From positions 13,886 to 77,885 of the forward strand of contig JAFYHG010000027.1 in the NCBI GenBank assembly GCA_017539265.1: 64,000 bases of DNA, in the 5' to 3' direction. Numbering within the stretch: position 1 is the stretch's first letter; every line of letters begins with the position of its first letter. The notes below the pieces were generated by a model. That model had not been told where the DNA came from. It worked only from the letters and a program-made list of their open reading frames with translations, and ran no database searches. Below are positions 3 through 60,668 of this stretch, piece by piece. The position numbers and the translations under genes were made by a program. Origin of the DNA: Alphaproteobacteria bacterium (lineage in GTDB: Bacteria > Pseudomonadota > Alphaproteobacteria > CAAHEQ01 > UBA3637).

Positions 3-575
3 ATGGTTAAAGTTATGCCGGTTAATCGCATTGCAAATTCAGAAGATTTAAACGAAATTATTAACGGAATAGATCAAGCATCCCTTGAAGCTGCTCAAGC
101 AAAGGATCCAAACAAGCCAGCAATGAATATCAGATTAGTATGTATGGGCCACGAACCGGACCTTGGTGCAAAGTTGAAAGCTGAAATTAAAAAACAAGGC
201 TTTGATGTAAATGTTGAAGTTTATGATATTCTTCGCAACGACAAAGAGCTTGAATTTAAGCATCCATCTGAAGCAAACATCGTCAAAGAAGGTAATAAAC
301 TCGTAATTCAAGATTTCTTCCCAATGAATTTATTACAAAAACTATCTATCCAAAAGGAAAACGTTGAAAATTGGAAAGAACTTGTTGAATCTGTCAAGAT
401 AGATTGGAATTATGATGGAGCCGTCTTCCAACCGGCAGTCATTGATTATCCGGAAGATAAAAAAGACATGGTAAAAGGAGTGTACGACATCCCAGCAGAT
501 GTGGGCATTGTCCGTATAAAGATAACAGACCTTTTGTCTGAGAGCTTTGAAACGGAACTTGATTGGAGTAAATAA
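3..575 (+). CDS. Hypothetical protein, probably the 3' part of a gene starting upstream of the window. Its stop lies 2 bp before the start of the helicase-nuclease gene.
   Basis: ORF runs to the window edge. TAA at 573-575, next ATG at 578, so translational coupling is likely. No recognisable motifs. A Type III Mod C-terminus would be a plausible partner but cannot be shown from this fragment. Confidence 0.4.
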   Translation: MVKVMPVNRIANSEDLNEIINGIDQASLEAAQAKDPNKPAMNIRLVCMGHEPDLGAKLKAEIKKQGFDVNVEVYDILRNDKELEFKHPSEANIVKEGNKLVIQDFFPMNLLQKLSIQKENVENWKELVESVKIDWNYDGAVFQPAVIDYPEDKKDMVKGVYDIPADVGIVRIKITDLLSESFETELDWSK

Positions 576-577
576 CC

Positions 578-3265
578 ATGGCAAGAACTTCTTCCGAACA
601 AAACTTTTCATTTGAATTCTTTTCACATTTAAAGAACTTCTATTATAACAACAGACCAAGTATTCGCAAGCACTACAAAGAGTTAACAAAACGAATACTT
701 GACTATAATGACCCAGAAAAAGGTGATGCATTCCTTAGAAAGCCTCAATTTGAAGCACTAGAAATGTATATCTTTCTGAAAGAGTTTGCAAATAACAAAA
801 AAGTTCATGAAATTTTCCGGGATTGGCATGAAGGTAAGAATGGTTTTGAAAAAGAAAAACTGGTCATTACAGAGGATGAATCTGGCCAACAAAGTTTTAT
901 GAAAACCCTTGTATTTTCAAATGAAGATGAATATAAACGTGCTTTTGATTACTTGGCCAAGTCATCTCGTCAGTACGCGAATTATATCTTTGCACTTACG
1001 ATGGGTACCGGCAAAACAATCCTTATGGCTACCTGCATATTCTACGAATTTATACTCGCAAACAAATTTAGAAATGATGCTCGTTATTGTCAGAACGCCC
1101 TGGTATTCGCACCGGATAAGACGGTTTTACAATCTTTGCGAGAAATAAAGGATTTTGATATCTCAAAAGTTTTGCCACCGGAATACGCAAATTTTATCTC
1201 ATCGGCCGTAAAGTTCCACTATTTAAGTGATACAGATACAAGCTTATCTGTTCAACCGGAATCTTTATTTAATATTATCATTTCAAATACACAAAAGATT
1301 ATTATAAAGAAACAACACAAAGAAAAATCAAAATTGGAATTGTTCTACACACAACCATCAACTCGTGCTCTTCAAGAAGAGAAACCTGAAAAAAAGAAAG
1401 ATTCAACCTTTGATGCTATTGATGAATTAATGGGTAATTCGGATGTTCCGCAGGATGAAAAAGAACTAATACCAAATGCCCGTTTTCAACGTATCGCACA
1501 GTTACCCCAGCTGGGAATATACGTTGATGAGGCCCATCACTCTATCGGTAAAGAACTCGCTAGTAGCCAAACTAACAATAAAGAAGCAAGTAGTTTAAGA
1601 ACAACTATTAACGAACTTGCCAGTCGTTTAGATGCTTGTGGTTCACGCGTTGTTGCCTGCTATAACTATACAGGTACTCCGTACATTGGTAGAAGCATTA
1701 TGCCAGAAGTTGTTTATGCCTATAGTTTGGCGGATGCAATCAAAAACAAATATCTGAAGCAAACAGATCCTATCGCGTATTCGAATATTAAATCCGAAGA
1801 CTTTATACGCAATGTCATCAAGAATTTCTGGGAACAAGAAGGGGAAAAACGCGTAGAAGATATGTTGCCAAAACTTGCTTTTTTTGCAGCAACAATTAAA
1901 GAATTGGAAGAAGAACTTCAGCCCAAAATTGAAAAAGTTCTTGATGAATTGGGTATTTCAACTGATAAAATACTGATAAATGTTGGCGATCCAAAATTAA
2001 CGACAAACGATCAACTTCGCGAGTTTAATAGTTTGGATACGCCAGAATCAAACAAACAATTCATACTTCTTGTTGGCAAAGGACGGGAGGGTTGGAATTG
2101 TCGCTCTCTATTCGGCGTAGCTTTATTCCGTAAGCCAAAATCGACCATTTTTGTCCTTCAAGCAACCATGCGTTGTCTGCGGTCGATTGGTCCAAATCAA
2201 GAAACTGGACACATTTACCTCTCTGAAGAAAACTTAAATATTTTGGATGATGAACTTCAACGTAACTTTAACGTAACTCTTGCAGATATTAAAAAGAAAA
2301 AAGAATTACCCTCTTATACAGTTAGAATGGTTCCCCCCCCAGTTAAAATCACATTAAATCGTGTAAAACGTGTTTACTCTATAAAAAAGAAGAAAGAATG
2401 TCCAGAAGGAGTCGACTTTGGTTTGGATAGCCTTGATTATAACAACTACAAAGTTATAAAGACCGATAGGATATCTTTACTTACAACAATGGCAAAGGTA
2501 ACAGATATTACAGAAACAACAAGTAGACGACAGTTTAGTGCTTATATGCTTGTTGCTGAGATCGCTCGCTACTTTAACAATTCAGATGTTTCATGCTTCA
2601 TAATCAAGAAGATACTCGAGGCATCTAAGGAAGGTATAGCTAAAATTGTTGATACTGTTAATTTATATAACGATATTTTATATGATGTAATCATTCCAAT
2701 CATTTACAAAAACCTCTACGAAATTACATCAACCGACAATTCCGAACCAGAGGAGATTGAATTGGTTAAAATTAAGGATACCATTGATAAAACAGTGTTT
2801 ATTCGTAAATGTTCCGAAGATTTGGTTACCTCTATGCAAGATGCATATTTAAGAGATGTTGTTGAGAAAAGTTTTAATTTAGATACATATTGTTTTGATT
2901 CAACTCCAGAAATTGATTTCTTTAGAAAGTCTATATTTGACGACAATGTAGAAAAAATATACTTTACTGGTATGTTGACACATGGTGAATCTGATTTTTA
3001 TATTAATTATATAGATCCAGAAAGTCATACAGTTCGAAATTATTATCCTGATTTCCTAATAAAAACAAAAGACAATAAATGGCTTATTATTGAAATTAAA
3101 GGTGATAACCGGATTGATGATCCTGTTGTCCTGGCAAAAGCTGAATATGCACGCCGTTTAGCATCAGATAGTATGTTTGAGTACTATATGGTTAAGGGAA
3201 CGGATGCGAAAGACCTTGGCTTTGCGGCTCTTGATTATAAAAGTACTCAAGGTAGTTTATATTAA
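578..3265 (+). CDS. SF2 (ResIII/DEAH) helicase with a C-terminal PD-(D/E)xK-like nuclease motif, i.e. Type III restriction Res-like architecture.
   Basis: Helicase motifs seen: LRKPQFEALE (Q-like), TMGTGKT (motif I), VDEAHH (DEAH, motif II), YTGTPY (motif III), QATMRCLR (QxxGRxxR-like motif VI). Near the C-terminus, YPDFLIK ... LIIEIKG fits D...E-x-K of the PD-(D/E)xK fold. Domain order (helicase N-terminal, nuclease C-terminal) is as in Res subunits. Confidence 0.7.
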   Translation: MARTSSEQNFSFEFFSHLKNFYYNNRPSIRKHYKELTKRILDYNDPEKGDAFLRKPQFEALEMYIFLKEFANNKKVHEIFRDWHEGKNGFEKEKLVITEDESGQQSFMKTLVFSNEDEYKRAFDYLAKSSRQYANYIFALTMGTGKTILMATCIFYEFILANKFRNDARYCQNALVFAPDKTVLQSLREIKDFDISKVLPPEYANFISSAVKFHYLSDTDTSLSVQPESLFNIIISNTQKIIIKKQHKEKSKLELFYTQPSTRALQEEKPEKKKDSTFDAIDELMGNSDVPQDEKELIPNARFQRIAQLPQLGIYVDEAHHSIGKELASSQTNNKEASSLRTTINELASRLDACGSRVVACYNYTGTPYIGRSIMPEVVYAYSLADAIKNKYLKQTDPIAYSNIKSEDFIRNVIKNFWEQEGEKRVEDMLPKLAFFAATIKELEEELQPKIEKVLDELGISTDKILINVGDPKLTTNDQLREFNSLDTPESNKQFILLVGKGREGWNCRSLFGVALFRKPKSTIFVLQATMRCLRSIGPNQETGHIYLSEENLNILDDELQRNFNVTLADIKKKKELPSYTVRMVPPPVKITLNRVKRVYSIKKKKECPEGVDFGLDSLDYNNYKVIKTDRISLLTTMAKVTDITETTSRRQFSAYMLVAEIARYFNNSDVSCFIIKKILEASKEGIAKIVDTVNLYNDILYDVIIPIIYKNLYEITSTDNSEPEEIELVKIKDTIDKTVFIRKCSEDLVTSMQDAYLRDVVEKSFNLDTYCFDSTPEIDFFRKSIFDDNVEKIYFTGMLTHGESDFYINYIDPESHTVRNYYPDFLIKTKDNKWLIIEIKGDNRIDDPVVLAKAEYARRLASDSMFEYYMVKGTDAKDLGFAALDYKSTQGSLY

Positions 3266-3274
3266 GAGTGAAAT

Positions 3275-4795
3275 ATGCAAACATCGGCAGCAATTATAAA
3301 AATTTTATTTTGGAGTCTAATACTTTATTTGACGTTTAAACCAAAGAAAAAAACAAAAGGGGAAACATTATTGCAGAATAAGACGACTGCGAAGTCTACT
3401 ACATCTTCAGAAAGAAGTGTATCTAAACCCTTGGCAACGTATATCACTGAGCCAACATCACAAATATCTATTAATAAACATCCTATTATTGATGAACCTG
3501 TTAAAAAAGCTAGTACAAAATTATCTAAATTACAGCAAGATACGTTTGAGATTATTGAAAACACGAATAAAAACATATTCATCCAAGGACAAGCTGGCAC
3601 AGGTAAATCAACTTTTGTAGATTATCTTCAGTCTCATTCTAATAAACGCATACTTGTCGCTTGCCCAACAGCAGTAGCGGCAATAAACGTTGGTGGGTCT
3701 ACCTTACATTCTTTATTTAAACTACCGCTTAGTGATTTTCTGATAATTGATGAGATTATAAAGAAACCTCGGCGTACCCTTGCTTCAATTCTTCAAAAAA
3801 CTGACTTATTAATAATTGATGAGGTTTCAATGGTGAGACCAGATATGCTCGATGCAATAGACGCACTTTCAAGAATTGCACGTTGCAACAGAAAAGTACC
3901 ATTTGGTGGCTTACAAATTCTGTTGATTGGTGATCTTTGCCAGTTACCACCGGTTATAAAGAAAAACACTTATACGGTTTTCAAACAAGAATACGGCATC
4001 TCGGCGCCTTATTTTTTTGATGCTAAATCCTATAAAAATGGTAATTTTGATAAGATCGAATTCTCAAGAGTATATCGGCAATCCGATACAGAATTGCTGA
4101 ATAATCTTATAAAATTAAGAAATTACGAAGATTTAGATTCTGTTATAGAATACTTCAATAACTGTAAAATTACAGACAAAAATATACTTGATACAGCAGT
4201 TACCATTACTCCTTACCGAGCTGTCGCAGAACAAATGAATAAACAAAGGTTGGAGGCAATAAAGGGGACAGAAAAAAACTATGAATGTAAAACAACAGGG
4301 ACATTTGATGAGGTAAAGGATTCACCAGCTCCTAGAGTATTGACATTAAGAAAGGGAGCTCTCGTAATTTTTAATAAAAATAATGGGAGCAAATGGATTA
4401 ACGGGACTAGCGGTATTGTCGAATCATTAAGTGATAATATTATAGAAGTGCGGATTTTAAAAACAAATGAGATTGTTGCAGTAAAAAGAGAAGAATGGAA
4501 AATTTATCAATATGATATTGATAAAGAGACATCAAAAGTTTATGAAAAAGAGGTTGGATCTTTTATTCAATTCCCGCTTCAACTTGGTTACGCACTAACA
4601 ATTCATAAAGCACAAGGTAAAACTCTGGATAGTGTTATCATTGATATTGATCGTGGTGCATTTGCTCATGGACAACTCTATGTCGCACTTAGTAGGACAC
4701 GCAAAAAATCCGATATCCACCTTGTAAAGCCAATTTCACTATATGATATTATACAAGATGATCACGTAATAAATTTTCTTAAAGAAATACAATAA
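3275..4795 (+). CDS. Pif1/RecD-family (AAA_30) SF1 helicase with a hydrophobic N-terminal segment and a low-complexity linker.
   Basis: Motifs: GQAGTGKST (Walker A), LLIIDEVSM (Walker B/II), ILLIGDLCQLPPV, TIHKAQGKT, LYVALSRTR. These are hallmarks of Pif1/RecD/TraA-like helicases. Starts 9 bp after the previous stop. N-terminus (IIKILFWSLILYLTF) is TM-like. Confidence 0.75.
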   Translation: MQTSAAIIKILFWSLILYLTFKPKKKTKGETLLQNKTTAKSTTSSERSVSKPLATYITEPTSQISINKHPIIDEPVKKASTKLSKLQQDTFEIIENTNKNIFIQGQAGTGKSTFVDYLQSHSNKRILVACPTAVAAINVGGSTLHSLFKLPLSDFLIIDEIIKKPRRTLASILQKTDLLIIDEVSMVRPDMLDAIDALSRIARCNRKVPFGGLQILLIGDLCQLPPVIKKNTYTVFKQEYGISAPYFFDAKSYKNGNFDKIEFSRVYRQSDTELLNNLIKLRNYEDLDSVIEYFNNCKITDKNILDTAVTITPYRAVAEQMNKQRLEAIKGTEKNYECKTTGTFDEVKDSPAPRVLTLRKGALVIFNKNNGSKWINGTSGIVESLSDNIIEVRILKTNEIVAVKREEWKIYQYDIDKETSKVYEKEVGSFIQFPLQLGYALTIHKAQGKTLDSVIIDIDRGAFAHGQLYVALSRTRKKSDIHLVKPISLYDIIQDDHVINFLKEIQ

Positions 4796-4813: not shown

Positions 4814-5506
4814 TTATTCTAGACATTTATTTAAATCCCAGGGAGTGAGAAGTGCCAATATTTTTTCCGTTGGTTTTCCATTATCGGTTATAAAGATAAC
4901 TTCCAATCTTTTATTATTATTAAAGTCATCTTTAACCATCTCTTTTACCTCATCAACCGTTATGGTTTTTGGTATAAACCTGTAATGAACATCTGGATCG
5001 TTATATAACTCACAAAAATCCTTAAGATCTTTCATACAGATCTCATTAGTCTCCTCAATTATTTCTTGCTTATGTTTATTAAAATACAGCATAAGTGAGT
5101 GTGATGAGAAAACACCCTCTATAGCCCCATTTTTATCTAGTATTGGAGAACAGGTGTAATTTTTATCAAGCATCACTTGTATCACTGTATTAACTCTTTC
5201 ATTACCTGTGACTCTATATATTTTAGCTAAAGGTATTGCTATATCAATAGCTTTTGGAGGATACATTATCCTATCAGCTTCTGCCGCGAAAGTGGTGTAT
5301 AATTCATTAGTAAGATTGATAAATTTGCCATTACGAGCATTATCTTGATGTGTTAACAAATTTCGCAATGTTTTATAGAATTTCCATGTTCCAATGTTTT
5401 TTCCAAAACATTTATCGTCTAATATATTATCTATGTTAGGATTTTTCCTTTTGACAAAGCTTTCTATTTCAGTATATTTGCTTAAAAATTTATCTATTAC
5501 TGACAT
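4814..5506 (-). CDS. Hypothetical protein with an R-x4-H (HEPN-like) motif at the N-terminus and a CBS-like C-terminal half.
   Basis: TLRNLLTHQDN gives R-x4-H. The C-terminal half has CBS-like strings (SPILDKNGAIEGVFSSHSLMLYF; KILALLTPWDL). Lies on the same strand 91 bp downstream of the WYL regulator gene. Domain calls are tentative. Confidence 0.45.
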   Translation of the reverse strand: MSVIDKFLSKYTEIESFVKRKNPNIDNILDDKCFGKNIGTWKFYKTLRNLLTHQDNARNGKFINLTNELYTTFAAEADRIMYPPKAIDIAIPLAKIYRVTGNERVNTVIQVMLDKNYTCSPILDKNGAIEGVFSSHSLMLYFNKHKQEIIEETNEICMKDLKDFCELYNDPDVHYRFIPKTITVDEVKEMVKDDFNNNKRLEVIFITDNGKPTEKILALLTPWDLNKCLE

Positions 5507-5597
5507 CTTATAACCTTTCTAAATGAAATGTATACACGTTGAATTTTACTTAAAAAACATATAAAAATCAATACTAACTATTGACTAACCCACATTT

Positions 5598-6545
5598 TTA
5601 TTTTTCCTTTATCATTGTAGCCCAATTTTTGGGTTTAATAACTTTTACGTGATTACCCCAGGTATAAAGATGCCAATCCATTTCTTTTGAACCTCCGGCA
5701 CGGAATTTAACCGTTAAAGTTCCATCATCATTATGAATCATCTTTTGTTTGGGATGAAATTGATACTCTGCGGCACTACTGGCAACTTCCTTATCAAACA
5801 GCCATTCTACATCAAAAGGTTCCTCATGGAAAATGCCAAAAGACTGGGACATAAACTTTTCCAAAGAGAACTTTTTGTCTCGAGTGAAGTAATCCTTGGA
5901 AACTTTTATATTTCTAATACGGCTGATATCAAATGTGTACATTTGACCCCGCTTTACATTCCAAGCAATCAAATATGGCTTATTCCCATAAACAAAGCCA
6001 TATGGCCAAATAACCTTTTCCGTTGTTGCTACCTTACTTTCATAGGTAATTGTAATAATTTGACAACCCAAAATAGCATTTCTTAATATTTTCATAAATT
6101 CTTTATTGATACGGACTTTTGGGCCAGGGCGAAAAGCATATTTTTCAGATTCAAAGATCATCTCGGCATCTGGTTCATACTTGTTTAAAGCTGGTTTAGT
6201 CATTCCGGCCTTTATTTTATTTAATAATCGGTCAAGATTCTCACTGTCTTCTGGTGATTGTTCCTTCATTAAACGAATCGCTCGTTCTAGAGAATGTAGC
6301 TCTGGAAAATTGATAGCAATATGTTGATTTATTGTTTCAGGGGGAATACACCAAGACTTTCTATTCCCAGGGCCCTTAATCTCCTTCAATTGTGGGAATT
6401 GTTCCTTAATTTCATTTACATAACGAATAGCTGTCCGTTTATTTACCTGATATAATTCCATGATTTGGGATAAATTGACACCTTCCATAGAACTTTGCAT
6501 TCTGGTGACAATTTCCATTAAAATAGCGGTTTTTGTGTATGGCAT
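5598..6545 (-). CDS. WYL-domain transcriptional regulator (HTH + WYL; BrxR/CapW-like architecture).
   Basis: N-terminal HTH-like segment (LSQIMELYQVNKRTAIRYVNEIK). Middle region with the WYL signature (KPYLIAWNVKRGQMYTFDISRIRNIKV). Size about 315 aa, typical of this family. Confidence 0.7.
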   Translation of the reverse strand: MPYTKTAILMEIVTRMQSSMEGVNLSQIMELYQVNKRTAIRYVNEIKEQFPQLKEIKGPGNRKSWCIPPETINQHIAINFPELHSLERAIRLMKEQSPEDSENLDRLLNKIKAGMTKPALNKYEPDAEMIFESEKYAFRPGPKVRINKEFMKILRNAILGCQIITITYESKVATTEKVIWPYGFVYGNKPYLIAWNVKRGQMYTFDISRIRNIKVSKDYFTRDKKFSLEKFMSQSFGIFHEEPFDVEWLFDKEVASSAAEYQFHPKQKMIHNDDGTLTVKFRAGGSKEMDWHLYTWGNHVKVIKPKNWATMIKEK

Positions 6546-6605
6546 AGTACTCCTTTCTGTTATTGATATATCCTACAACAAAATGAAACAAATTGCAAGT
6601 AGTAA

Positions 6606-6622
6606 GTGACAAAAGTTGTCAC
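6606..6622. promoter_or_regulatory. Perfect 7-3-7 palindrome GTGACAA-AAG-TTGTCAC in the divergent intergenic region; candidate operator for the WYL regulator.
   Basis: Read directly in the sequence. Lies between the WYL gene start (6545) and the -35 of the plus-strand operon promoter. Confidence 0.45.
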
Positions 6623-6640
6623 CGATTTCCCTTTGATATC

Positions 6641-6669
6641 TTGACTTTTTGAAAATAATTCTGTATGTT
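6641..6669 (+). promoter_or_regulatory. Sigma70-like promoter TTGACT-17-TATGTT for the GIY-YIG operon.
   Basis: TTGACT at 6641-6646, a 17-nt spacer, TATGTT at 6664-6669. A GGAGG RBS sits ~10 nt before the ATG at 6707. Confidence 0.45.
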
Positions 6670-6706
6670 GAACGCGTTGTTTAACTTTTATTTGGAGGAC
6701 TAAAAA

Positions 6707-7150
6707 ATGTTGATAACTGGTACAAAAGAACAAGTTCATAATTTTCTAAAAACGGAGCCACATGAGTTTTATGTGTATGTACTCTGTGAACCCAACAAGA
6801 CTCCGTTTTATGTTGGGAAAGGCTGTGGAAACCGTATATTCCAACACGAATACGAAGCTGCACGCTCAGCATCTCGTAATCCCTACAAAACTAAAATGAT
6901 TAAAAACATTACGAAAAAGGATGGTAAGATTATCTACACAATAGATAGTGTACATAAAACTGAAGAAGAGGCTTTGATTCGTGAACGTGAGCTGATGCGT
7001 GAAATCGGCAGACCATTATTAACAAACCTGTCGGAAAAAGACTATAATACGACTCATGGTCGTTTGTACTGGTCTATTACGGGTATGTTAAAAGGCATCA
7101 ACAGAACTGTTTTTAGATTAACACATTCAGGAAAGGAGACATTACAATGA
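6707..7150 (+). CDS. GIY-YIG family nuclease domain protein.
   Basis: FYVYVL ... PFYVGKG ... NRIFQH ... EEALIRERELM ... LTNL reproduces the GIY/YIG/R/H/E/N catalytic pattern. Confidence 0.65.
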   Translation: MLITGTKEQVHNFLKTEPHEFYVYVLCEPNKTPFYVGKGCGNRIFQHEYEAARSASRNPYKTKMIKNITKKDGKIIYTIDSVHKTEEEALIRERELMREIGRPLLTNLSEKDYNTTHGRLYWSITGMLKGINRTVFRLTHSGKETLQ

Positions 7151-7461
7151 ATTTGGCTATGGTTTCGGGAACAATGGGTCCTATCAGAGATAAAGATATT
7201 TTTGTCAGAAATGACGGTGCAACAGTCGTAGATGGCTATATTGAAAAGACGTTTATGAAAGGCGAACAAGAGATCCGTAGTCATTATTACTTCACGGTTT
7301 CCGGAGGAAAAGCGGATAACTTACTAAAGTACTATCGGCCAGGTGATAGGGTTATGCTTACAGGGAAACTGGCAACCCGAGTTGACGAGGATGGACATTT
7401 TTGGGTTACTATTGTAGCATCTAGTTTTAGCAAGATGGATACGATAGATACGGATATTTAA
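7147..7461 (+). CDS. SSB-like OB-fold protein (short, no acidic tail).
   Basis: MNLAMVSGTMGPIRD ... ATVVDGYI ... YYFTVSGGKADNLLKYYRPGDRVMLTGKLATR ... HFWVTIVASSF parallels the SSB OB-fold layout. Overlaps the upstream gene by 4 bp (ATGA). Confidence 0.45.
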   Translation: MNLAMVSGTMGPIRDKDIFVRNDGATVVDGYIEKTFMKGEQEIRSHYYFTVSGGKADNLLKYYRPGDRVMLTGKLATRVDEDGHFWVTIVASSFSKMDTIDTDI

Positions 7462-7476
7462 GAAAGGAGAAAAATC

Positions 7477-7671
7477 ATGGGATTTTGGAGTGCTTTGTTA
7501 GGATTGGTTGATACACCGTCAAATAATGGATATAATAATGGTGGCAATCGTTATAATCGAGAGCCGACCGCAGAAGATTATATTCGTTCTGGTGAAATTG
7601 AAGAGGGTAATTATGATGATGGACAGAGAAATACAATTGACGAACACGGTCAATTACCAGATGACTGGTGA
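7477..7671 (+). CDS. Small protein (64 aa) with a hydrophobic N-terminus and an Asn/Gly-rich, acidic tail.
   Basis: AAAGGAGA RBS 6 nt upstream. In-operon position. No homology recognised. Confidence 0.35.
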   Translation: MGFWSALLGLVDTPSNNGYNNGGNRYNREPTAEDYIRSGEIEEGNYDDGQRNTIDEHGQLPDDW

Positions 7672-7729
7672 AGCTTTATTATCATATAGTTAATTATATA
7701 AACGGATTTTTAGAAAAGGAGACCATATT

Positions 7730-8149
7730 ATGAATACACACTTTATTCGCATTTGGAAAAACCATATTAAAAAAGAAAATGGTATTACAACAGAGTTTTT
7801 ATCAGTAAAGCCAAGCCCATTTAATAAGAAAGAATATGTTATGCCCGTTGTGGGGGATTATGCATATGTTTACCATTTGATACATGATGCAGAACCTTAT
7901 GAGAACACACCAGGCCGAGGACTTGATTGCTATGGAAAAATAACAAAAGTCACTGAAGAAAAAAGGAAAGTATCAATTTCGCTATCAGTTGAAAAAGAAA
8001 TGTATCCTAAAATTTTCAGATGTGATCAGCTGAAGGGATTAACGTACCCCAATGAACTAGATAAATGTATGTCGAATAGTTGTAATGAAGGTATAAATTT
8101 ATTGTCCCAAGAAGCAGATGACTTTTTACAAAAACAGTTTAATCAATAA
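7730..8149 (+). CDS. Hypothetical protein (139 aa).
   Basis: ORF within the co-directional operon. AAAGGAGA RBS upstream. Confidence 0.45.
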   Translation: MNTHFIRIWKNHIKKENGITTEFLSVKPSPFNKKEYVMPVVGDYAYVYHLIHDAEPYENTPGRGLDCYGKITKVTEEKRKVSISLSVEKEMYPKIFRCDQLKGLTYPNELDKCMSNSCNEGINLLSQEADDFLQKQFNQ

Positions 8150-8164
8150 ATTAAAGGAATCCCA

Positions 8165-9475
8165 ATGACAAAAGATATCCATACAATCAAATGCCCCAAA
8201 TGTGGAGAAGTTTTTCCGATTGATGAAAGCGGTTACGCCGCTATTGCCAGCCAAATTCGCGATAATGAGTTCCGAAAGGCTTTGGAAGAACGCTTTGAAC
8301 AAATGCAAGCGGATAAAGAAAGTGCCCTGAAACTTGCTCAGGTAACCGCTGACGCTGATAAAGAAAAATCTGTTTCTGCATTAAATCATCAAATTGATAT
8401 TTTAAATCAACAGCTAAAAACGATTAAAAAGGAAAGCGAACTTGATAAAGAGCAATCCATTGCGGAGTATAAACAGCAAATTACGGAGCTTCAGGCTCAA
8501 ATCAAGGCCAATGAAAAGGATAAAACCATTGCTGTTAATGCCGCACTGGAAGAAAATAAAGACACTTTGGTTGAAAAAGATAAAGAAATTATTGAATTGA
8601 AAGGGAAACTCCAAGGCGCCGAAAAGGATATCAAGCTTCAAGAGAAATCTTTAAAAGAAAAATACGAGATGGAATTGAAAAATAAGGACGAACTGATTGA
8701 TTATTATAAAGATTTAAAGATAAAGATGTCCACAAAAATGCTTGGGGAGACACTTGAACAGCACTGTGAAATCGCATTTAATATCATCCGTGCAACAGCT
8801 TTCCCAAATGCTTACTTTGAAAAAGACAATGACTCCAGAACAGGCAGTAAGGGGGACTATATTTTCAAAGAATCCACCGAGGATGGCATAGAATTCCTAT
8901 CCATTATGTTTGAAATGAAAAACGAAATGGATACAACAGCAACAAAACATAAAAATGAACATTTTTTCAAAGAATTAGATAAAGACCGTCAAGAAAAAGG
9001 ATGTGAATATGCCGTTTTGGTCTCTTTGCTAGAGTCGGATAGTGAGTTATATAACACGGGAATTGTTGATGTTTCCTACAAATATCCGAAAATGTATGTT
9101 ATTCGTCCACAATTCTTTATTCCTATAATCACTTTGCTCCGTAATACTTCCATGAATTCTGTTCAGTATCGCCGACAACTGGTCGAGTATAGAAACCAAA
9201 ATATAGATATTTCAAACTTTGAGGCTAAAATAGAAGATTTCAGAGACAAAATTAAGAAAAATTATCGTCTAGCAGGAGAGAGATTTAAAGCAGCAATTGA
9301 AGAAATTGACAAAAGTATAACACACTTGCAAAAAATTAAAGATGCCTTGCTTTCCACAGAAAGTAACTTACGCCTTGCTAACGATAAAGCTCAAGATTTT
9401 ACCGTCAAGAAACTCATTAAGGACAATCCGACAATGCAAAAGAAATTTGCAGAACTTAATCCACCAGAGGAATGA
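8165..9475 (+). CDS. DUF2130-like protein: N-terminal CxxC zinc ribbon, long coiled coil, and a C-terminal region with a D ... E-x-K (PD-(D/E)xK-like) arrangement.
   Basis: [29 protein letters not shown] matches the DUF2130 N-terminus as I remember it. Heptad-rich K/E middle. KGDYIF ... IMFEMKNE near the C-terminus. Confidence 0.6.
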
Positions 9476-9516
9476 GTACAGAGCTAAAAGATTTATGTAA
9501 GCATTGATTATATAAG

Positions 9517-10266
9517 ATGATAAAAGGAATTTGCAAATATTGTGGTCAAGAGAAAGAACTTATCAATTCTCATATAATTCCGAAAAATTTATGTCAAATT
9601 GATAAGAATGGCCCAATGGTTGGAATAGACTCTCTAACAAAGACTTTTGACCATAATCCTATACATCAAAACGGAGCAAAAGCTTACCTTCTGTGTAAGG
9701 AGTGTGATAATCTATTAGGTAAGCTAGATAGATATGGTAGTAAAGTGTTTAAGAAGATAATTCCAAATCATAAATGGGACATAGTAGATGGTGTAGAACT
9801 ATGTAAATTATTACCAGATGAAGTAGATTACTGGACATTAAAAAAGTTTTTAATTTCTGTGTTGTGGCGTGCTTCTGTAGATAAGAATGGGCCTGATTTA
9901 GGAAGATATGAAAATATTGCACTAAAAATACTTAAGGAAGAGCTTCCTGATAATTCTAACTATTTTGTTCCTTTCGTATACATACTAGACACTAAGACAC
10001 CCTTAGACTTTTCTATGGGGATTTTTGGCAATAAAACTTTAGGGAAACACATATATATTATTCACTTCCCTCATTATGAGGTAATGATTATACCTTCTGC
10101 TGAACATTCACGAGACCCAAAACTTATGGAACTATACAAGGCTTTATTCAATTGTAACCATATAATAGTTCAGAAATTTTCTATACCAACCCTGATTGAC
10201 CAACAATTGATTAACACATTAAAGATATGTCAAAAGAATGAGTTACAAAAAAAGAAAAAGTTATAA
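9517..10266 (+). CDS. Cys-cluster protein with an HNH-like arrangement (CxxC ... HIIP ... CxxCDN).
   Basis: CKYCGQEKELINSHIIPKNL and LLCKECDNLLGK. The spacing is longer than in a canonical HNH, so this is tentative. Confidence 0.4.
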   Translation: MIKGICKYCGQEKELINSHIIPKNLCQIDKNGPMVGIDSLTKTFDHNPIHQNGAKAYLLCKECDNLLGKLDRYGSKVFKKIIPNHKWDIVDGVELCKLLPDEVDYWTLKKFLISVLWRASVDKNGPDLGRYENIALKILKEELPDNSNYFVPFVYILDTKTPLDFSMGIFGNKTLGKHIYIIHFPHYEVMIIPSAEHSRDPKLMELYKALFNCNHIIVQKFSIPTLIDQQLINTLKICQKNELQKKKKL

Positions 10267-10305
10267 ATTTTCTTTTATTACAGAGAAGACGAATAAGTAG
10301 AACAC

Positions 10306-10887
10306 TTATATCGTCACATTCTCTACAGCATTTGAGAGCATTTTCTCGTTATAATTGAAGTACCTTTGAGTTGTCCCAATATTGCGGTGGTTGGCGAGTT
10401 TTTGAACCAAACAGATATTTGTGCCGGCATTGATAAGGCGACTCACGAACAAATGGCGTCCAAGATGGCTTCCCCCGTCAATATTGAACTTACTGTAAAT
10501 GTTTGAAAACATTCTGCTAATACTAACACGATTGAAAGGTTTTCCTAACTTTTGCGAGGTAAAGAGATACATTTCTGGGGTAATTTCTTCATTTTTGGTC
10601 TTTAGGTAAGAAAGATATTCCTTAAACTCTTTCTTCATTTGAGTATTAAGGTAATAAGAACACCCGAACTTGCCTTTGTTTTTATCCTTATCCAGACAAA
10701 TGACATCCTTGACCTTTAGGTCGGAAGTGTAGACATCCCCGACTTGAAGGTAAGCAAAATTTATAGACCTCATGCCATTGAGCGAGCATAGGAACATCAT
10801 CCTAATTTGTTCCGCATGTCGCATCCCCTGAATATAGGTTAAAATATCTTTGATTTTTTTATCATCTATAAAAACTTGGTTTACCAT
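10306..10887 (-). CDS. Tyrosine recombinase, catalytic domain only (193 aa).
   Basis: R (LNGMRSI), HLGRHLF (H-x-x-R), NHRNIGTTQRY (terminal H/Y) reproduce the integrase catalytic residues. No N-terminal core-binding domain is present. Confidence 0.65.
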   Translation of the reverse strand: MVNQVFIDDKKIKDILTYIQGMRHAEQIRMMFLCSLNGMRSINFAYLQVGDVYTSDLKVKDVICLDKDKNKGKFGCSYYLNTQMKKEFKEYLSYLKTKNEEITPEMYLFTSQKLGKPFNRVSISRMFSNIYSKFNIDGGSHLGRHLFVSRLINAGTNICLVQKLANHRNIGTTQRYFNYNEKMLSNAVENVTI

Positions 10888-10967: not shown

Positions 10968-12788
10968 ATGTTAAAAAATGTTATTTTTTTGAATAAAATT
11001 AAACATTTTGAAATACTTGCCTGGAATGACGTTTTCAAAAACATTGATTTTATAAGGCTATTAGGGATAATGTTAAATAATGTATGTTTTTTAACATTTT
11101 TCATTTTTCTGGACTTTTGGATGATTTTATTGTATACTGCGACCAGTTTTTTAAATTTTCATGGATTCAGTATGCGAATAAACCGTCCAAATTATTTTAG
11201 CGAGATTGACGAGCAAGATGTCCTCTTCTATGGAGAGGAAGGACGCTTTCGGAGAATATCCCTAGATTTCTGGAAAGATGTTTACCCAAATATATTGCAA
11301 GCGTACTTATCAACCAAACAACCCGAAAATGATTTTAAGGACACTTTTGTAGACCCGTCATTTTATCCGATAGGTCCAGAACATGCACTACGTTTATGCA
11401 CGAGGGTGTTTACAGATATCTTTCCTTCGTGTTTCGAAACAAATTACTCGGAACTTCCTGATAGACCTGGTAAGTTATATGAAAAGGATATAGAGCCACT
11501 TAAAGACAAAAAAGGGCTTGTTGGGGCTATTGCGAGAACATGGAACAAAATAGGCAAATATGGAGACTATCATTTTTTACAGCTCCTAGAGATTGTTAGC
11601 ACATTTAAAAATGGTATTGTAAAACTTACGGATAAACTGCCAGACCCACTATATGCTGATTTTGTAAAAGAAATACGTGCAGTCTTTTATAAGTACGCAG
11701 ATTTATTGAATAATAAAGAAATCAGAAAAGAAATTGATAAAATCGTTTTCTTAAAGCATCCGAATGCAACTAAAAAGATTAAGTCCCCAAGAGGATATCG
11801 GATAGTTAAGGCAGAATACGCCCGTTGTGAACTTATTTTTGAAAATGTGGATTTTGGTAGGAAAGAACAGGAGCTTTTCTGGAACATACTAACGATTCCA
11901 GAGGGTTTTGTTCCAATGGAAACAGCTTTTTTCCTTAATTGTAGATTTTCTGCAACCTATACATGTCCTACAAAAGTAATTCGTCCCAGGGCTTTGTTCA
12001 GATACTGCATATTTGAAAAAGAATTTGCCCCAGCTCCATATATCCAGCAATCATGGAGATTTATAAACTGTACAATAAAAAACAAATTTAATTTCAGAAA
12101 AACAGTGCTACGCAGAGGGCTTTTCTTTCATGGATGTGTGTTTGAGTCGGAAAGTTCATTCATATTTGATAATTCACGTGGCAACCGTTGGGTTCCGAAA
12201 GATTACCCATATAATAAACTTTATTTTACAGACACAATATTTGGCGGTGATTTCTCCATAATGAATACAAGTTTAAGTCATACTGAATTTGTATTGAAGA
12301 ATGTCGCATTTTTCAAAACATTCCGCTTTGATGAAGTCAGATTAAGTGATAAGTGCACTTTTGAACGTATTAGTTTTGCTTTGGGAAGTACTCCGCAAAT
12401 AATACAATGTAAACAAACTTTTGTTGAAATGCTCCAATTACACGGATATCATGCGGAACTTGATTCACTGGGATTATTAAGTAAAAATTCTAACAAAAAA
12501 AGAGCTCAACGCTTTTATACATCATGGCTTCATCCAATCGAAGCAGCCGAATTTCTTTCCAAAAGCATAAGTTGGTTAGCCAAGAAAAGACAAGCCGACA
12601 GATTAAAGAAAACAAAGACTTCTATACCATTTGTTGGGGAAAAGAAAAATATTTTATACCCCAAGACAGCCTTACAGGCATTCCGTTCACAAGATTGGAA
12701 TAAGTTAAAAGAACTCTGTAAAAAATATGGAGTTGGTGAGAAAGAAAAACCCAAATCTGCCGACATTAGCATATTTGATGTAGATTAA
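10968..12788 (+). CDS. Large hypothetical protein (start uncertain; hydrophobic N-terminus).
   Basis: Long ORF. Its last ~95 nt are duplicated downstream of the abi gene. Confidence 0.45.
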   Translation: MLKNVIFLNKIKHFEILAWNDVFKNIDFIRLLGIMLNNVCFLTFFIFLDFWMILLYTATSFLNFHGFSMRINRPNYFSEIDEQDVLFYGEEGRFRRISLDFWKDVYPNILQAYLSTKQPENDFKDTFVDPSFYPIGPEHALRLCTRVFTDIFPSCFETNYSELPDRPGKLYEKDIEPLKDKKGLVGAIARTWNKIGKYGDYHFLQLLEIVSTFKNGIVKLTDKLPDPLYADFVKEIRAVFYKYADLLNNKEIRKEIDKIVFLKHPNATKKIKSPRGYRIVKAEYARCELIFENVDFGRKEQELFWNILTIPEGFVPMETAFFLNCRFSATYTCPTKVIRPRALFRYCIFEKEFAPAPYIQQSWRFINCTIKNKFNFRKTVLRRGLFFHGCVFESESSFIFDNSRGNRWVPKDYPYNKLYFTDTIFGGDFSIMNTSLSHTEFVLKNVAFFKTFRFDEVRLSDKCTFERISFALGSTPQIIQCKQTFVEMLQLHGYHAELDSLGLLSKNSNKKRAQRFYTSWLHPIEAAEFLSKSISWLAKKRQADRLKKTKTSIPFVGEKKNILYPKTALQAFRSQDWNKLKELCKKYGVGEKEKPKSADISIFDVD

Positions 12789-12790
12789 AC
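12695..12790. repeat. Direct repeat copy 1 (96 bp), including the 3' end of the 10968-12788 gene.
   Basis: 95/96 identical to 13985-14080 by direct reading. Confidence 0.9.
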
Positions 12791-12839
12791 GGTTTATCTT
12801 ATTGAAAATAAATACGATATAAAATTAATTAAAAAAGTG

Positions 12840-12914: not shown

Positions 12915-13979
12915 ATGGAAGGGCATTATTTTAAGGTTATAGAAATGCAGAGAGTCAAATTTTTTAAAGAATCAAAAACCCCTGATGAGCTTATAGAACA
13001 ACTTGTTAAACGTGGTATGGTAATTACAAATCGTGATTATGCTAAAGATATTTTATTTAAAATTAATTATTATCGTTTATCAGGATATTGGTTTAAATTT
13101 CAAAATAAATGGTTAAAGCAATTGCCAGTTCCAGAAAACGCAACCAGTGAAGAAATTGATGAACTGAATAATCAATTTATCAGACGGGTATCCTTTGAAA
13201 ATATTGTTGATATATACAGATTTGATAGTAAATTACGTTCTTTATGCATAGATGCACTGGAGAAAATAGAAATTGGAATTAGCTCTGTTCTCTGTAATCA
13301 TATGTGCCAAAAGTATGGCGGATATTGGTTTTTAAATAAACAGCTTGTGCAAAAAGTCACAAAAAAAACTAAAGAAGGAGAAAAAGTTTTATTTAATCAT
13401 GATTTATTAATGGAAGACATTGATAAGTTATTAGCAAAAAATAAACGAACAAAATGTATCAAAAATTTTCGAGTAAAATATACTGATGAATATCCTCCTT
13501 ACTGGATATTAGCTCAATTGGTAACATTTGGAACTTTATCGAAAATTTATTCTTCTTTACCCCCTGTAGATAAAAAAGAAATTGCAAAGATGCTAGGTGT
13601 AAATGATGAACTGTTATCACACAGCCTCACATTACTGTCTTATATTAGAAATATTTGTGCTCATTATGCCCGCTTATGGGATAATGATAATAGTGTTGTC
13701 CCTTTGAATATTAATTTTAATCGCATAGAACCCAACAGTATTTTTAATTATCGCTTTCATACAAATGGAAAGAATAGTGCAACATTCTTCCCAGTATTTT
13801 ATTTAATAACCTTATACTTATATATGCTTTATCCGAAATCTAAATGGTGCTCCATTGTTGAACAAAAAATTAAAGAATATGAGAAATTAACAGATTCATT
13901 GGTTTCTTTTAAGACCATGGGATTTTTAGATACGTGGAGAGAATTACCATTATTCATAAGAATGCTCAAGAATGCGTAA
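12915..13979 (+). CDS. Abi_2 family (AbiD/AbiF-like) abortive infection protein.
   Basis: N-terminus ... TPDELIEQLVKRGMVITNRDYAKDILFKINYYRLSGYWF is a classic Abi_2 start. Later, IRNICAHYARLWDN gives the R-x4-H (HEPN) motif of this family. Confidence 0.8.
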   Translation: MEGHYFKVIEMQRVKFFKESKTPDELIEQLVKRGMVITNRDYAKDILFKINYYRLSGYWFKFQNKWLKQLPVPENATSEEIDELNNQFIRRVSFENIVDIYRFDSKLRSLCIDALEKIEIGISSVLCNHMCQKYGGYWFLNKQLVQKVTKKTKEGEKVLFNHDLLMEDIDKLLAKNKRTKCIKNFRVKYTDEYPPYWILAQLVTFGTLSKIYSSLPPVDKKEIAKMLGVNDELLSHSLTLLSYIRNICAHYARLWDNDNSVVPLNINFNRIEPNSIFNYRFHTNGKNSATFFPVFYLITLYLYMLYPKSKWCSIVEQKIKEYEKLTDSLVSFKTMGFLDTWRELPLFIRMLKNA

Positions 13980-13984
13980 CTTAA

Positions 13985-14080
13985 TTGGAATAACTTAAAA
14001 GAACTCTGTAAAAAATATGGAGTTGGTGAGAAAGAAAAACCCAAATCTGCCGACATTAGCATATTTGATGTAGATTAAAC
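13985..14080. repeat. Direct repeat copy 2 (96 bp).
   Basis: Matches 12695-12790 with one mismatch. Confidence 0.9.
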
Positions 14081-14596
14081 GATTCCCTTATGTAAAATTA
14101 GGTCGAACATAATGTCCCAAGCTGTTTGTCCTTTCTTATTTTTTAAATTGGTTAAGTCTGCTCCATAGTCCAAGAAGGCATAAAGAAGTTTCTTTTTACG
14201 GTGGATGTTTTTATCAAAAAGGACTCTCATTAAAGCTGTATTGCCCCAAATGTCCTGTGTATCTAACTCCGCCCCTGAATCCACAAATAACCAGGGCACT
14301 ATGGCTTCACATTGTCCTTCAACCGCACGCATTAGAGGAGTTTCCCCGTGTTGGTTGGTCTTGTTCACATCTCCGCCCATGTTTATTAAGGCTTCAATTC
14401 TTTCCCCATCTTTAAAATAATTCATAGCGTATAAAAATGGAGTCATGCCAATCGGGGGCATAGGTCTGTTTAAGTCTGCTCCTTTCTTTACATAGTATTG
14501 TATGAGTTTCAAATTCCTTTCTTTAATGGCTTTTAATAGGTCTTCCTGTATATTCATAGTCTCTCCTTTTAAATTATTTATCCCTACTGATTCCAC
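14075..14596 (-). CDS. Ankyrin-repeat protein.
   Basis: ANK consensus stretches (GMTPFLYAMN ... GETPLMRAVEGQ ... GNTALMRVL ... GADLN). Confidence 0.7.
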   Translation of the reverse strand: MESVGINNLKGETMNIQEDLLKAIKERNLKLIQYYVKKGADLNRPMPPIGMTPFLYAMNYFKDGERIEALINMGGDVNKTNQHGETPLMRAVEGQCEAIVPWLFVDSGAELDTQDIWGNTALMRVLFDKNIHRKKKLLYAFLDYGADLTNLKNKKGQTAWDIMFDLILHKGIV

Positions 14597-15653: not shown

Positions 15654-16244
15654 ATGATTTATGGGTATTGCAGATGTTCAACTGATAAGCAGACGGTATC
15701 ACATCAACACTATGAAGTTCAAAAGTTCGCAGCCACCAATGGTGTTCAAGTTGATGAATGGATTGAGGAAACCATAAGTTCAAGAAAACCACTTGCCAAA
15801 AGAAAGTTGGGTGAGTTATTAAATAATATGAAAGAAGGAGATGTTCTGATAACCCCCGAAATCTCCCGTATTGGTAGAAGCCTATTAGAAATAATGTCTA
15901 TTTTACAGACTTGTTTAGAAAAGAACTGCCAGATATGGACAATTAAAGAGAACTACCGCTTGGGTGCTGATATCCAAAGCAAGGTGCTAGCGTTTGCGTT
16001 TGGCTTAGCAGCCGAAATCGAGCGTAATCTTATTTCTCAACGCACAAAGGCAAGTTTGGAATCATTGAAAAAGAATGGTAAAAAACTCGGTCGTCCGTTT
16101 GGGGCTAAAAATAAGTCCCTGAAACTGTCCAAAAATCGCACCAGAATCAACAGTCTTCTTGCTAAAGGCTTGCCCAAGGCTCAAATTGCCCGCATTTTCG
16201 GTGTGGATAAGATGACTATGTATAGGTTCTTAAAGGGAGAATGA
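15654..16244 (+). CDS. Serine recombinase (resolvase/invertase family).
   Basis: GYCRCSTDKQ catalytic N-terminus with the serine nucleophile. C-terminal HTH (KAQIARIFGVDKMTMYRFL). Confidence 0.8.
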   Translation: MIYGYCRCSTDKQTVSHQHYEVQKFAATNGVQVDEWIEETISSRKPLAKRKLGELLNNMKEGDVLITPEISRIGRSLLEIMSILQTCLEKNCQIWTIKENYRLGADIQSKVLAFAFGLAAEIERNLISQRTKASLESLKKNGKKLGRPFGAKNKSLKLSKNRTRINSLLAKGLPKAQIARIFGVDKMTMYRFLKGE

Positions 16245-60475: not shown

Positions 60476-60668
60476 AATTTAATTCTATGTTATATTCTAA
60501 TGGCCTGATTTTAATCCACAAAAAGTATTTTTACAACTTTAATTTCAGTCCCTGGATTACCAAATGTCCCCAACCAAATCAGATCAGTCGTCAGCGAACG
60601 CCTAGAGGAAGAAATAGTTGACAAAAAATGACATCTGTGATATACTTCCCCCATAGGAAGGAAAATTT

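Follow-up and report, generated by a model that had tools for sequence, protein, structure and literature searches.

Introduction

Type IV restriction enzymes are typically built as a fusion of an EVE/PUA-like reader of modified bases to a PD-(D/E)XK, HNH, GIY-YIG or PLD nuclease (PMC6765204, PMC7897488, PMC7641849). Fusions of EVE domains to the first three of these nuclease types have been described, as have stand-alone EVE proteins encoded beside restriction-modification (R-M) systems and operons combining YafY, a WYL protein, with an EVE protein (PMC7641849). PD-T4-3, now renamed CMoRE, is a two-domain type IV enzyme which functions as a single gene, its C-terminal domain sensing 5-hydroxymethylcytosine and glucosyl-hydroxymethylcytosine (5hmC/ghmC) (PMC12923530). 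Here we describe a locus in which a reader and nucleases of these kinds are predicted to be encoded by separate genes. It is situated in a 64,000-nucleotide (nt) stretch of alphaproteobacterial DNA, referred to below as the window (GenBank assembly GCA_017539265.1, contig JAFYHG010000027.1, positions 13,886 to 77,885), and consists of six genes, g1 to g6, divergent from a gene for a WYL-domain regulator. We propose that the locus may be a WYL-gated, split type IV-like restriction cluster, in which a predicted EVE-like reader (g4) acts with the adjacent nuclease of the DUF2130 family (g5).

Two WYL regulators, BrxR and CapW, act as repressors (PMC9122601, PMC11662680). CapW lets go of double-stranded DNA once it has bound single-stranded DNA (ssDNA) (PMC11662680), and mosaic islands under the control of BrxR-type regulators have been reported (PMC9122601). 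The WYL regulators DriD and PafBC are described as activating damage-response genes on binding of ssDNA.

Results

The predicted reader and the DUF2130 protein

The product of g4, which a first-pass annotation made from the sequence had listed as a 139-amino-acid (aa) unknown, is predicted to be an EVE/PUA-like modified-base reader, as its structural model adopts a PUA-like beta-barrel fold. This assignment is at the level of fold, because no match to EVE was found at the level of sequence. Two close and two remote relatives were detected in two protein libraries. One of the four matches returned by the remote search, an 832-aa repeat protein (P0047), was rejected as a spurious low-complexity similarity. 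The family keeps a G-D-x-x-Y-x-x-H motif, and the conserved W9, Y46 and H49 are candidate pocket residues. A nuclease or defence-type gene always lies next to the g4-family gene: DUF2130 in the window and in contig L095, a PD-T4-1-like protein in contig L143, and an 83-aa Smr nuclease-domain protein in contig L141, where the fourth relative follows the Smr gene with an overlap. In all four contexts the junction is tight (8-15 nt or an overlap). We found no description of DUF2130 paired with an EVE protein in the searchable literature.

The DUF2130 identity of g5, proposed in the first pass, was confirmed by a full-length match to PF09903 (E = 7.6e-86, 288 bits against a cut-off of 26.7, profile positions 2-254 of 255), and the family is listed within a census of the PD-(D/E)XK superfamily (PMC3424549). 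In an alignment of 77 sequences (the window protein and 76 homologues), E195, E198, D231, E250, M251, K252 and Q316 are kept in at least 97%, so that the D...EMK signature noticed earlier at the C-terminus, D231 and E250-M-K252, is near-invariant. The layout is an N-terminal CPxC, a coiled coil and a C-terminal PD-(D/E)xK core. Of the former description as a zinc-ribbon/coiled-coil protein, the coiled coil stands and the zinc ribbon does not: the N-terminus holds one conserved CPxC (C10, C13) and no second pair of cysteines, and with two cysteines only it cannot be a classical zinc ribbon. Residues 8-36 of g5 (8165-8260) comprise the single CPxC, followed by the long coiled coil. An intermolecular zinc site resembling the Rad50 hook would be a speculative alternative. 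RmuC is also laid out as a coiled coil plus a PD-(D/E)xK core, resembling DUF2130. Both families appear in the superfamily census (PMC3424549), and they differ in that RmuC belongs to another Pfam family, no RmuC match was obtained for g5, and the N-terminal CPxC is a feature of DUF2130.

An exact look-up of the window DUF2130 protein returned no record. Its relatives number at least 495, counting one genome per species, and keep 55-67% identity across phyla. We inspected up to 8 kb on each side of the best 80 of them, which come from other species in many phyla of gut bacteria. None of these 80 loci carries a relative of g1, g2, g3, g4 or g6, and thus the co-occurrence of DUF2130 with GIY-YIG and SSB-like neighbours, suggested as a check in the first pass, did not appear. 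The neighbours vary in size and strand, and in a census of 129 neighbours and 129 Pfam families none recurred more than 5 times. Where a neighbour is tightly joined to DUF2130, it is a defence-type ATPase or helicase, namely OLD with UvrD (Gabija-like), an SLFN-group-3 helicase, HsdR, AAA_13 and SMC-like proteins, and on Lactococcus plasmids DUF2130 lies among R-M and ABC-three-component genes. Two contexts near OLD-family genes (L016, 3876-9284; L002, 3469-6761) were noted separately. One is a Gabija-like order seen in some genomes, a gene for an OLD-family nuclease and then one for a UvrD-like helicase, with DUF2130 overlapping the end of the latter; the other is a helicase/DUF4391/methyltransferase cluster, in which DUF2130 comes immediately after an OLD-type 'ATP-dependent endonuclease'.

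Variants of the operon

Searches of very large databases returned the arrangement on three distinct contig types only. In the window the order is WYL, then, divergently, g1-g2-g3-g4-DUF2130-g6. Contig L143 keeps the WYL gene (98% identity of the product), g1 (84%), g2 (99%) and g3 (79%), followed by a distant g4 homologue (32%) and by a gene, X, which replaces DUF2130 and whose product is PD-T4-1-like at its N-terminus and weakly matches HARE-HTH. In contig L095 the promoter region is followed by a g2 homologue (63%), g4 (72%) and, directly after it, DUF2130 (86%); g1 is absent upstream of the g2 homologue, g3 is missing, and 16 nt separate the homologues of g2 and g4. What stays constant in all three variants is g2, a g4-family reader and a nuclease or defence-type effector directly after it, and we regard this trio as the recurring core. 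The coherent, conserved six-gene multi-nuclease module envisaged in the first pass did not recur in the 80 DUF2130 loci, nor in 45 loci encoding relatives of the WYL protein (the closest at 51-56% identity), none of which carries any of g1-g6. The cluster is a mosaic of swappable defence parts and not a fixed six-gene system.

Among 2.9 million viral contigs no locus was found for g2, one for the g6 family and two for DUF2130. No phage match was obtained either when bases 5500-10400 were compared by blastn with 50,697 phage genomes; against plasmids, the DUF2130 gene was the only match of this segment. The suggestion that homologous operons might be found in prophages with clear replication functions thus holds for g2 only, and not for the operon.

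The products of g1, g2 and g3

The assignment of g1 to the GIY-YIG nucleases was well founded: it matches PF22945 above the family threshold (E = 2.2e-11, 44.4 bits against a cut-off of 27). The motifs FYVYV, FYVGKG, GNR, RERE and LTN, corresponding to the catalytic Tyr/Tyr/Arg/Glu/Asn, were recognized by eye in the translation, and the Y-x-Y...Y-V-G pattern of the first two resembles the 'GIYxY-YIG' motif of CMoRE (PMC12923530). Further matches were to the PADLOC profile of PD-T4-3 (1.4e-9, profile positions 14-88 of 256) and to CMoRE in the PDB (9u75, 2.9e-5, residues 20-111). However, g1 has 147 aa against about 260 aa in PD-T4-3/CMoRE and corresponds to the nuclease half only. As the C-terminal modification-sensing domain is missing, g1 is not a PD-T4-3 system; instead, the separate PUA-like protein g4 is encoded three genes downstream. 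The g1 genes of the window and L143 differ by 28 synonymous and 24 non-synonymous codon changes.

Describing g2 as an OB-fold protein similar to single-stranded DNA-binding proteins (SSB) was right in direction, in that its matches consistently point to SSB, whereas none of them is above threshold. The match to the PHROG SSB family has an E-value of 1.5e-3, the best PDB profile match is an SSB at E = 0.14, and hhalign with Escherichia coli SSB gave 22% probability over 30 columns. The protein ends in an acidic tip and has, behind a G-D-R-V strand, the SSB-type motif region G-K-L-A-T-R. Its homologues form only 3 clusters among 5.8 billion proteins. Two of the clusters, at 70-71% identity, sit in phage replication modules between methyltransferases and primase; the contigs encode DnaB, PolA, two methyltransferases, a 162-aa open reading frame (ORF), the g2 homologue and primase, followed by a DEAD helicase, a RecA-like protein, an exonuclease and RuvC. 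The PolA of these contigs is closest (40-42%) to those of Agrobacterium and Rhodobacter phages. Since its homologues reside in phage replication modules with such a PolA, g2 can be classified, by its sequence relationships, as a phage-type replication SSB-like protein, and its phage origin appears established. A tblastn search with g2 against the 50,697 phage genomes found none.

The g2 genes of the window and L143 differ by 32 synonymous codon changes and a single non-synonymous one, which indicates strong purifying selection within the operon. The island copies of g2 (window 7147-7461; L095 145-459) are 63.5% identical to each other and 66-71% identical to the phage copies (P0041, P0042), and this suggests repeated exchange of g2 between phages and islands. 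In the two phage contigs (L092, 9494-10315; L093, 6090-7041) the 162-aa ORF, which is conserved and has no Pfam or PHROG match, and two N6/N4 methyltransferases precede the g2 homologue. The phages with g2 homologues thus probably carry methylated DNA, the type of target expected for a modification-dependent system. The likeness of g2 to phage replicative SSB lies in the motif region, the acidic tip and the vicinity of its homologues to primase; it differs in its small size (104 aa), its sub-threshold matches and its location in a defence operon, not in a replication module.

No family match was found for g3 in the domain-library searches. Its product is hydrophobic at the N-terminus, with a tail that is acidic and rich in N, and the L143 copy differs by a 9-nt in-frame indel; from these comparisons, and from its absence in L095, g3 appears fast-evolving and dispensable.

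The g6 family

The family of g6 comprises 39 proteins with invariant C6, C9, H19, C60, C63 and D64 and an F-x-x-S-x-x-W-R motif. Weak, sub-threshold matches to HNH_5 were obtained for 26 of 37 members and to Endonuclease_7 for 11, and g6 also matches PHROG families of unassigned function. The structural model (predicted local distance difference test score, pLDDT, 93) found no structural match in the PDB, and PADLOC gave none for g6. The Cys cluster and the sub-threshold HNH_5 matches speak for the HNH-like nature of g6 proposed in the first pass, and the structural comparison does not; a diverged His-Me finger is plausible. Of the three nuclease folds then claimed for the operon, GIY-YIG and DUF2130 are firm, whereas the third is weak.

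Relatives of g6 with 67-72% identity follow, at a distance of 1-7 nt, a type I HsdR gene in L003 and genes for Dsr1-like proteins in L006 and L009 (PADLOC scores 1e-39 to 1e-41), in islands which share with the window the 193-aa tyrosine recombinase and the resolvase. A distant member overlaps the 3' end of a gene with GmrSD_N only (NsnA 1e-67, PD-T4-2_A 1e-40). In fused GmrSD, the His-Me nuclease domain occupies the position that matches this family member. The likeness to GmrSD and to the two-gene DUF262 systems (NsnA/PD-T4-2_A) ends there, in that g6 of the window follows DUF2130 and not a DUF262 protein, and has no structural match to HNH enzymes. With four different kinds of upstream gene, the family looks, from gene neighbourhoods, like a promiscuous 3'-terminal accessory of defence modules.

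The WYL regulator and its putative operator

The regulator contains a WYL domain (PF13280, E = 2.3e-10, 40.7 bits, cut-off 21.8) and a WCX domain (PF25583, E = 3.6e-8, 34.1 bits, cut-off 23.9), and is matched by the PADLOC WYL profile at 1.4e-26; the match of its N-terminus to HTH_11 is weak (E = 0.051, 13.9 bits against a cut-off of 25). Neighbours of its homologues include an HEPN-SNF2 helicase and a GmrSD_N protein.

The perfect 7-3-7 palindrome (GTGACAA-AAG-TTGTCAC) and the TTGACT-17-TATGTT promoter reported in the first pass are both present between the divergent genes (Table 1). Taken alone, the palindrome is not significant: where about 15 perfect palindromes with arms of at least 7 are expected in the island, 17 occur, and shuffling the 161-nt intergenic region produces one in 12% of cases. 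The promoter is an ordinary 9/12 consensus match (31 such sites in the region against 27.7 in shuffles). The significance of the palindrome derives from the comparison with homologous loci. Of the 16 distinct regions upstream of the closest WYL homologues, 14 proved to share a motif, TGYCA-N5-TGACA, once they were aligned by their distance to the start codon. The motif starts at -65 to -75 (at -72 to -75 in 13 of the 14), and random 150-nt pieces drawn from these loci contain it in 1.9% of cases. The core of the window palindrome, TGACA-N5-TGTCA, starts at -76 from the WYL start codon and agrees with this motif in its half-site (TGWCA), in the spacing of 10 bp and in position; the exact palindrome or GTGACA half-sites were found almost nowhere in the upstream regions of the homologues. 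L143, 91% identical in nucleotide sequence, has 11 substitutions among the 161 intergenic positions, and all of them fall outside the palindrome. There is also no substitution at 6638-6671, with differences at 6625, 6632, 6634, 6637, 6672 and 6673, and the chance that 11 changes would spare palindrome and promoter (46 nt) is (115/161)^11 = 0.025.

Because of the conservation of the motif in homologues and its invariance in L143, the palindrome is very probably the operator of the WYL regulator; the link between the two, assumed in the first pass, is thus supported by the conserved motif and not by the palindrome as such. As the motif keeps its distance to the WYL start whatever lies upstream, autoregulation would be its first role, and control of g1-g6 is likely. 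The effect on transcription could be repression, as by BrxR and CapW, or activation, as by DriD. The window regulator resembles BrxR and CapW in having WYL and WCX domains, an upstream inverted repeat and defence genes as neighbours, and it is divergent from the adjacent operon, as CapW often is. The operator of BrxR has arms of 10-11 bp and a 5-bp spacer (PMC9122601), whereas the window palindrome has arms of 5-7 bp with centres 10 bp apart, and its place is not over a core promoter but further upstream than either inferred -35 box, at 7 nt from the candidate WYL promoter.

Three further observations concern this motif. In L102, L105 and L109 two copies of TGYCA-N5-TGACA are found 35-43 nt apart, which recalls the two R-boxes of BrxR (PMC9122601). 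In the window, a third half-site, GGTGACAATTT, is present at 6504-6514 within the first WYL codons; its complementarity to the palindrome's right arm reaches 91%, and it might act as an additional, weaker operator or have arisen by chance. Another match to TGWCA-N5-TGWCA, at 60619-60633, was judged coincidental: it is a direct repeat inside a TTGACA-17-TATACT promoter, and the 314-aa product of the gene behind it has no significant similarity to the WYL protein.

Gene layout and island context

All six genes were found as tightly packed ORFs on the forward strand, as initially described (Table 1), with junctions of -4, 15, 58, 15 and 41 nt in order; the 4-nt overlap of g1 and g2 is ATGA. A scan for promoters and terminators revealed nothing that exceeded shuffles, the fold of the g1 leader RNA is unremarkable (z = -1.75), and an Rfam scan of the whole island found no RNA family.

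Table 1. Coordinates of the WYL gene, the g1-g6 operon and associated elements (positions in the window)
Feature	Position	Strand	Remark
CBS-domain protein, 230 aa	4814-5506	-	91 nt downstream of WYL gene, same strand
WYL regulator (WYL-WCX with putative N-terminal wHTH; BrxR/CapW/YafY type), 315 aa	5598-6545	-	divergent from g1
Possible WYL-gene promoter, TTGCAA-17-TAGGAT	6570-6598	-	putative; found by eye, below promoter-scan threshold
Perfect 7-3-7 palindrome GTGACAAAAGTTGTCAC, putative WYL operator	6606-6622		
Promoter-like TTGACT-17-TATGTT for g1-g6	6641-6669	+	
g1, GIY-YIG nuclease domain, 147 aa	6707-7150	+	
g2, small SSB-like protein, acidic C-terminal tip, 104 aa	7147-7461	+	
g3, peptide, 64 aa	7477-7671	+	
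g4, predicted EVE/PUA-like modified-base reader, 139 aa	7730-8149	+	
g5, DUF2130 protein, 436 aa	8165-9475	+	
g6, CxxC...H...CxxCD protein (His-Me/HNH-like N-terminus), 249 aa	9517-10266	+	

The cluster lies in a block of low GC content, from base 1 to about 16,700 of the window (31-37% GC against 40-46% in the rest), most likely the defence-cargo part of an integrative island in a metagenome-assembled genome (MAG) of a gut or rumen alphaproteobacterium. The same 11 genes, identical or near-identical, are present on two ENA metagenome contigs, in which the ORF cut at the start of the window is seen to encode a 627-aa N6/N4 methyltransferase. Type III R-M genes (Mod/Res) and a PIF1-like helicase gene precede the cluster, and an AbiD gene follows it. 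The type III-like pair occupies 3-4795 on the forward strand, with Mod cut at the window start and a Res-like protein of 895 aa, the C-terminus of which is TnsA-like/restriction endonuclease; 9 nt after it begins the gene for a 506-aa PIF1/RecD-like helicase with PADLOC matches to RecD_IV, PDC-S68 and PDC-M16A. The CBS protein has a helical N-terminus and a pair of CBS domains (Pfam CBS, 2.7e-5), and a faint NCBIfam match to the DS11 CBS domain-containing anti-phage protein (7.6e-3). It may be co-regulated with the WYL gene; no homologue of it was found beside any of the 45 WYL-homologue loci, and its membership of the system is uncertain.

The AbiD gene (12915-13979; PADLOC AbiD, 9.1e-61) is bracketed like a cassette by a 101-nt direct repeat with 98% identity (12694-12794 and 13984-14084), one copy of which forms the 3' end of a 606-aa ORF (10968-12788) and the other lies just past AbiD. 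A 193-aa tyrosine recombinase consisting of the catalytic domain only and a resolvase of about 195 aa are encoded at 10306-10887 (reverse strand) and 15654-16244 (forward strand). When the related islands of loci L003, L006 and L009 were compared, the recombinase was 92-93% identical in two of them. The resolvase is also shared, and L006 has in addition the ankyrin gene and the DUF6626 gene. The defence cargo differs between these islands (type I R-M, Dsr1-like, PDC-S01), and they look like a frame in which cargo is swapped.

Discussion

The position of the locus in an island, its R-M and AbiD flanks, the WYL regulator and the CMoRE-like g1 favour the defence function suggested in the first pass, even if the conserved module imagined there does not exist, and we consider it likely that g1-g6 are anti-phage defence cargo in a general sense. 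A more specific proposal, a WYL-gated split type IV-like restriction cluster built on an EVE-like reader and a DUF2130 nuclease, is the one we put forward tentatively, at somewhat less than an even chance. We read g4 and g5 as a split type IV enzyme because EVE-nuclease fusions, stand-alone EVE proteins near R-M systems and YafY-EVE operons are on record. In comparison with the readers-plus-nuclease enzymes of type IV (EVE-HNH in VcaM4I and TspA15I; EVE-PD-(D/E)XK; EVE-GIY-YIG), the reader and nucleases of the window are separate polypeptides and not fusions, the partner is a DUF2130 coiled-coil protein, and a phage-type SSB-like protein is added.

According to this proposal, g4 would recognize modified bases in incoming or replicating phage DNA, and direct or license the adjacent coiled-coil DUF2130 nuclease to cut; a physical coupling of g4 and g5 may then be expected. 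The product of g2 might hold or mark single-stranded replication or repair intermediates at which the system acts, or compete with the phage's own SSB, and its role is the least certain step. The sensor-less CMoRE/PD-T4-3-type nuclease g1, presumably coupled translationally to g2, and the His-Me/HNH-like g6 would be optional extra nucleases that can be gained or lost. A dimer of the WYL protein would sit on TGACA-N5-TGTCA between the two divergent promoters, and binding of ssDNA, arising from infection or DNA damage, to its WYL domain could alter transcription, by analogy with CapW, BrxR and DriD.

Several results weigh against this proposal. The fold of g4 comes from an AlphaFold2 (AF2) model built on a 4-sequence input with medium confidence; g4 has no match to Pfam EVE (PF01878) at E up to 0.1, and its family profile found no EVE protein among PDB sequences. 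EVE/PUA-like domains, moreover, also read RNA modifications. DUF2130 is mostly stand-alone, with many housekeeping neighbours, and does not generally need a reader partner. The match of g2 to Pfam SSB (PF00436) is below its cut-off (6.8e-5, 23.3 bits against 26). Co-occurrence statistics are thin because there are only three contig types. Finally, the palindrome lies further upstream than either of the predicted -35 boxes; it is therefore not evident that g1-g6 would be repressed, and the palindrome may serve autoregulation of the WYL gene only.

The same modularity could mean that the locus holds independent single-gene cassettes, GIY-YIG, DUF2130 and g6 each acting alone and g2-g4 hitch-hiking or separate, which have a common promoter and WYL switch. 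This explanation, which we think rather unlikely and yet deserving of serious attention, is in keeping with the stand-alone occurrence of DUF2130 in 80 other species with no recurrent partner, the four kinds of gene upstream of the g6 family, the loss of g1 in L095 and the swap of the downstream pair in L143, as well as with the single-gene activity of PD-T4-3 (PMC12923530) and BrxR-type control of mosaic islands (PMC9122601). It accounts poorly for a g1 deprived of the sensor domain that gives PD-T4-3/CMoRE its specificity, for the tight g4-family/nuclease junctions in four contexts and the 4-nt overlap of g1 with g2, and for the strong constraint on g2 within the operon. The operon could also be a DNA-damage-inducible repair or recombination module, in which a DriD/PafBC-like WYL activator senses ssDNA, and the SSB, a UvrC/Cho-like GIY-YIG incision nuclease and an RmuC-like DUF2130 protein serve the host or the island. 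DriD and PafBC offer a precedent for ssDNA-triggered activation. The palindrome is placed as for an activator, its centre being at about -51 and -61 relative to the two inferred start sites; DUF2130 often lies among housekeeping genes, and its coiled coil and PD-(D/E)xK core resemble RmuC in layout. We nevertheless find such a module quite improbable: it would stand in a horizontally acquired island between R-M and AbiD genes, the best relatives of g1 are the anti-phage CMoRE/PD-T4-3, the EVE-like reader and the PD-T4-1-like alternative effector point to discrimination of foreign DNA, and the g2 and g4 families are extremely rare, unlike core repair genes.

An origin of the operon as a phage- or satellite-derived replication-recombination module, used by the island or a satellite for its own replication or to hijack a helper phage, was the second possibility raised in the first pass. 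What supports it comes from g2: the 70-71% identity to proteins of phage replication modules, the relationship of the accompanying PolA to that of Agrobacterium/Rhodobacter phages, and the fact that island copies resemble phage copies (66-71%) at least as much as one another (63.5%), to which the PHROG matches of g6 may be added. The operon, however, encodes no initiator, primase, helicase, polymerase or recombinase; g1, g3, g4, g5 and g6 were not found in the phage contigs with g2 homologues; the counts for g2, g6 and DUF2130 in 2.9 million viral contigs (0, 1 and 2) compare with at least 495 DUF2130 relatives in genomes; and blastn and tblastn gave no match in the 50,697 phage genomes. With g2 as its support, and contradicted by the lack of replication enzymes and the near-absence from viral collections, this explanation seems to us very improbable.

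The split type IV-like cluster can also be conceived in a more elaborate form, as a WYL-gated multi-subunit machine, in which the EVE-like reader, together with the phage-derived SSB, would seek out phage replication intermediates that are modified and single-stranded and hand them to DUF2130, with GIY-YIG and His-Me proteins as accessories. We regard this form as unlikely. If true, it would give the widespread DUF2130 family its first function, and would mean that a defence system captured the enemy's SSB to find or poison the phage replisome.

The individual parts of this locus belong to known kinds, namely WYL switches, EVE-type readers, and nucleases of the GIY-YIG and PD-(D/E)xK types. 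New are the split pairing of a predicted reader with DUF2130, the phage-type SSB within the operon, the g6 family, a roaming accessory for which the PDB gave no structural match, and an operator motif, TGWCA-N5-TGWCA, defined for one branch of WYL regulators. A phage-type SSB under strong purifying selection is an unusual ingredient of a defence operon. If the cluster restricts modified DNA, the split reader/nuclease pair could be used for detecting modifications. The locus illustrates how a defence island is assembled from interchangeable parts, a reader, a nuclease, an accessory nuclease and a WYL switch, and for the DUF2130 family, which is highly conserved and widely transferred and has no known role, the pairing with a predicted reader provides a concrete hypothesis.

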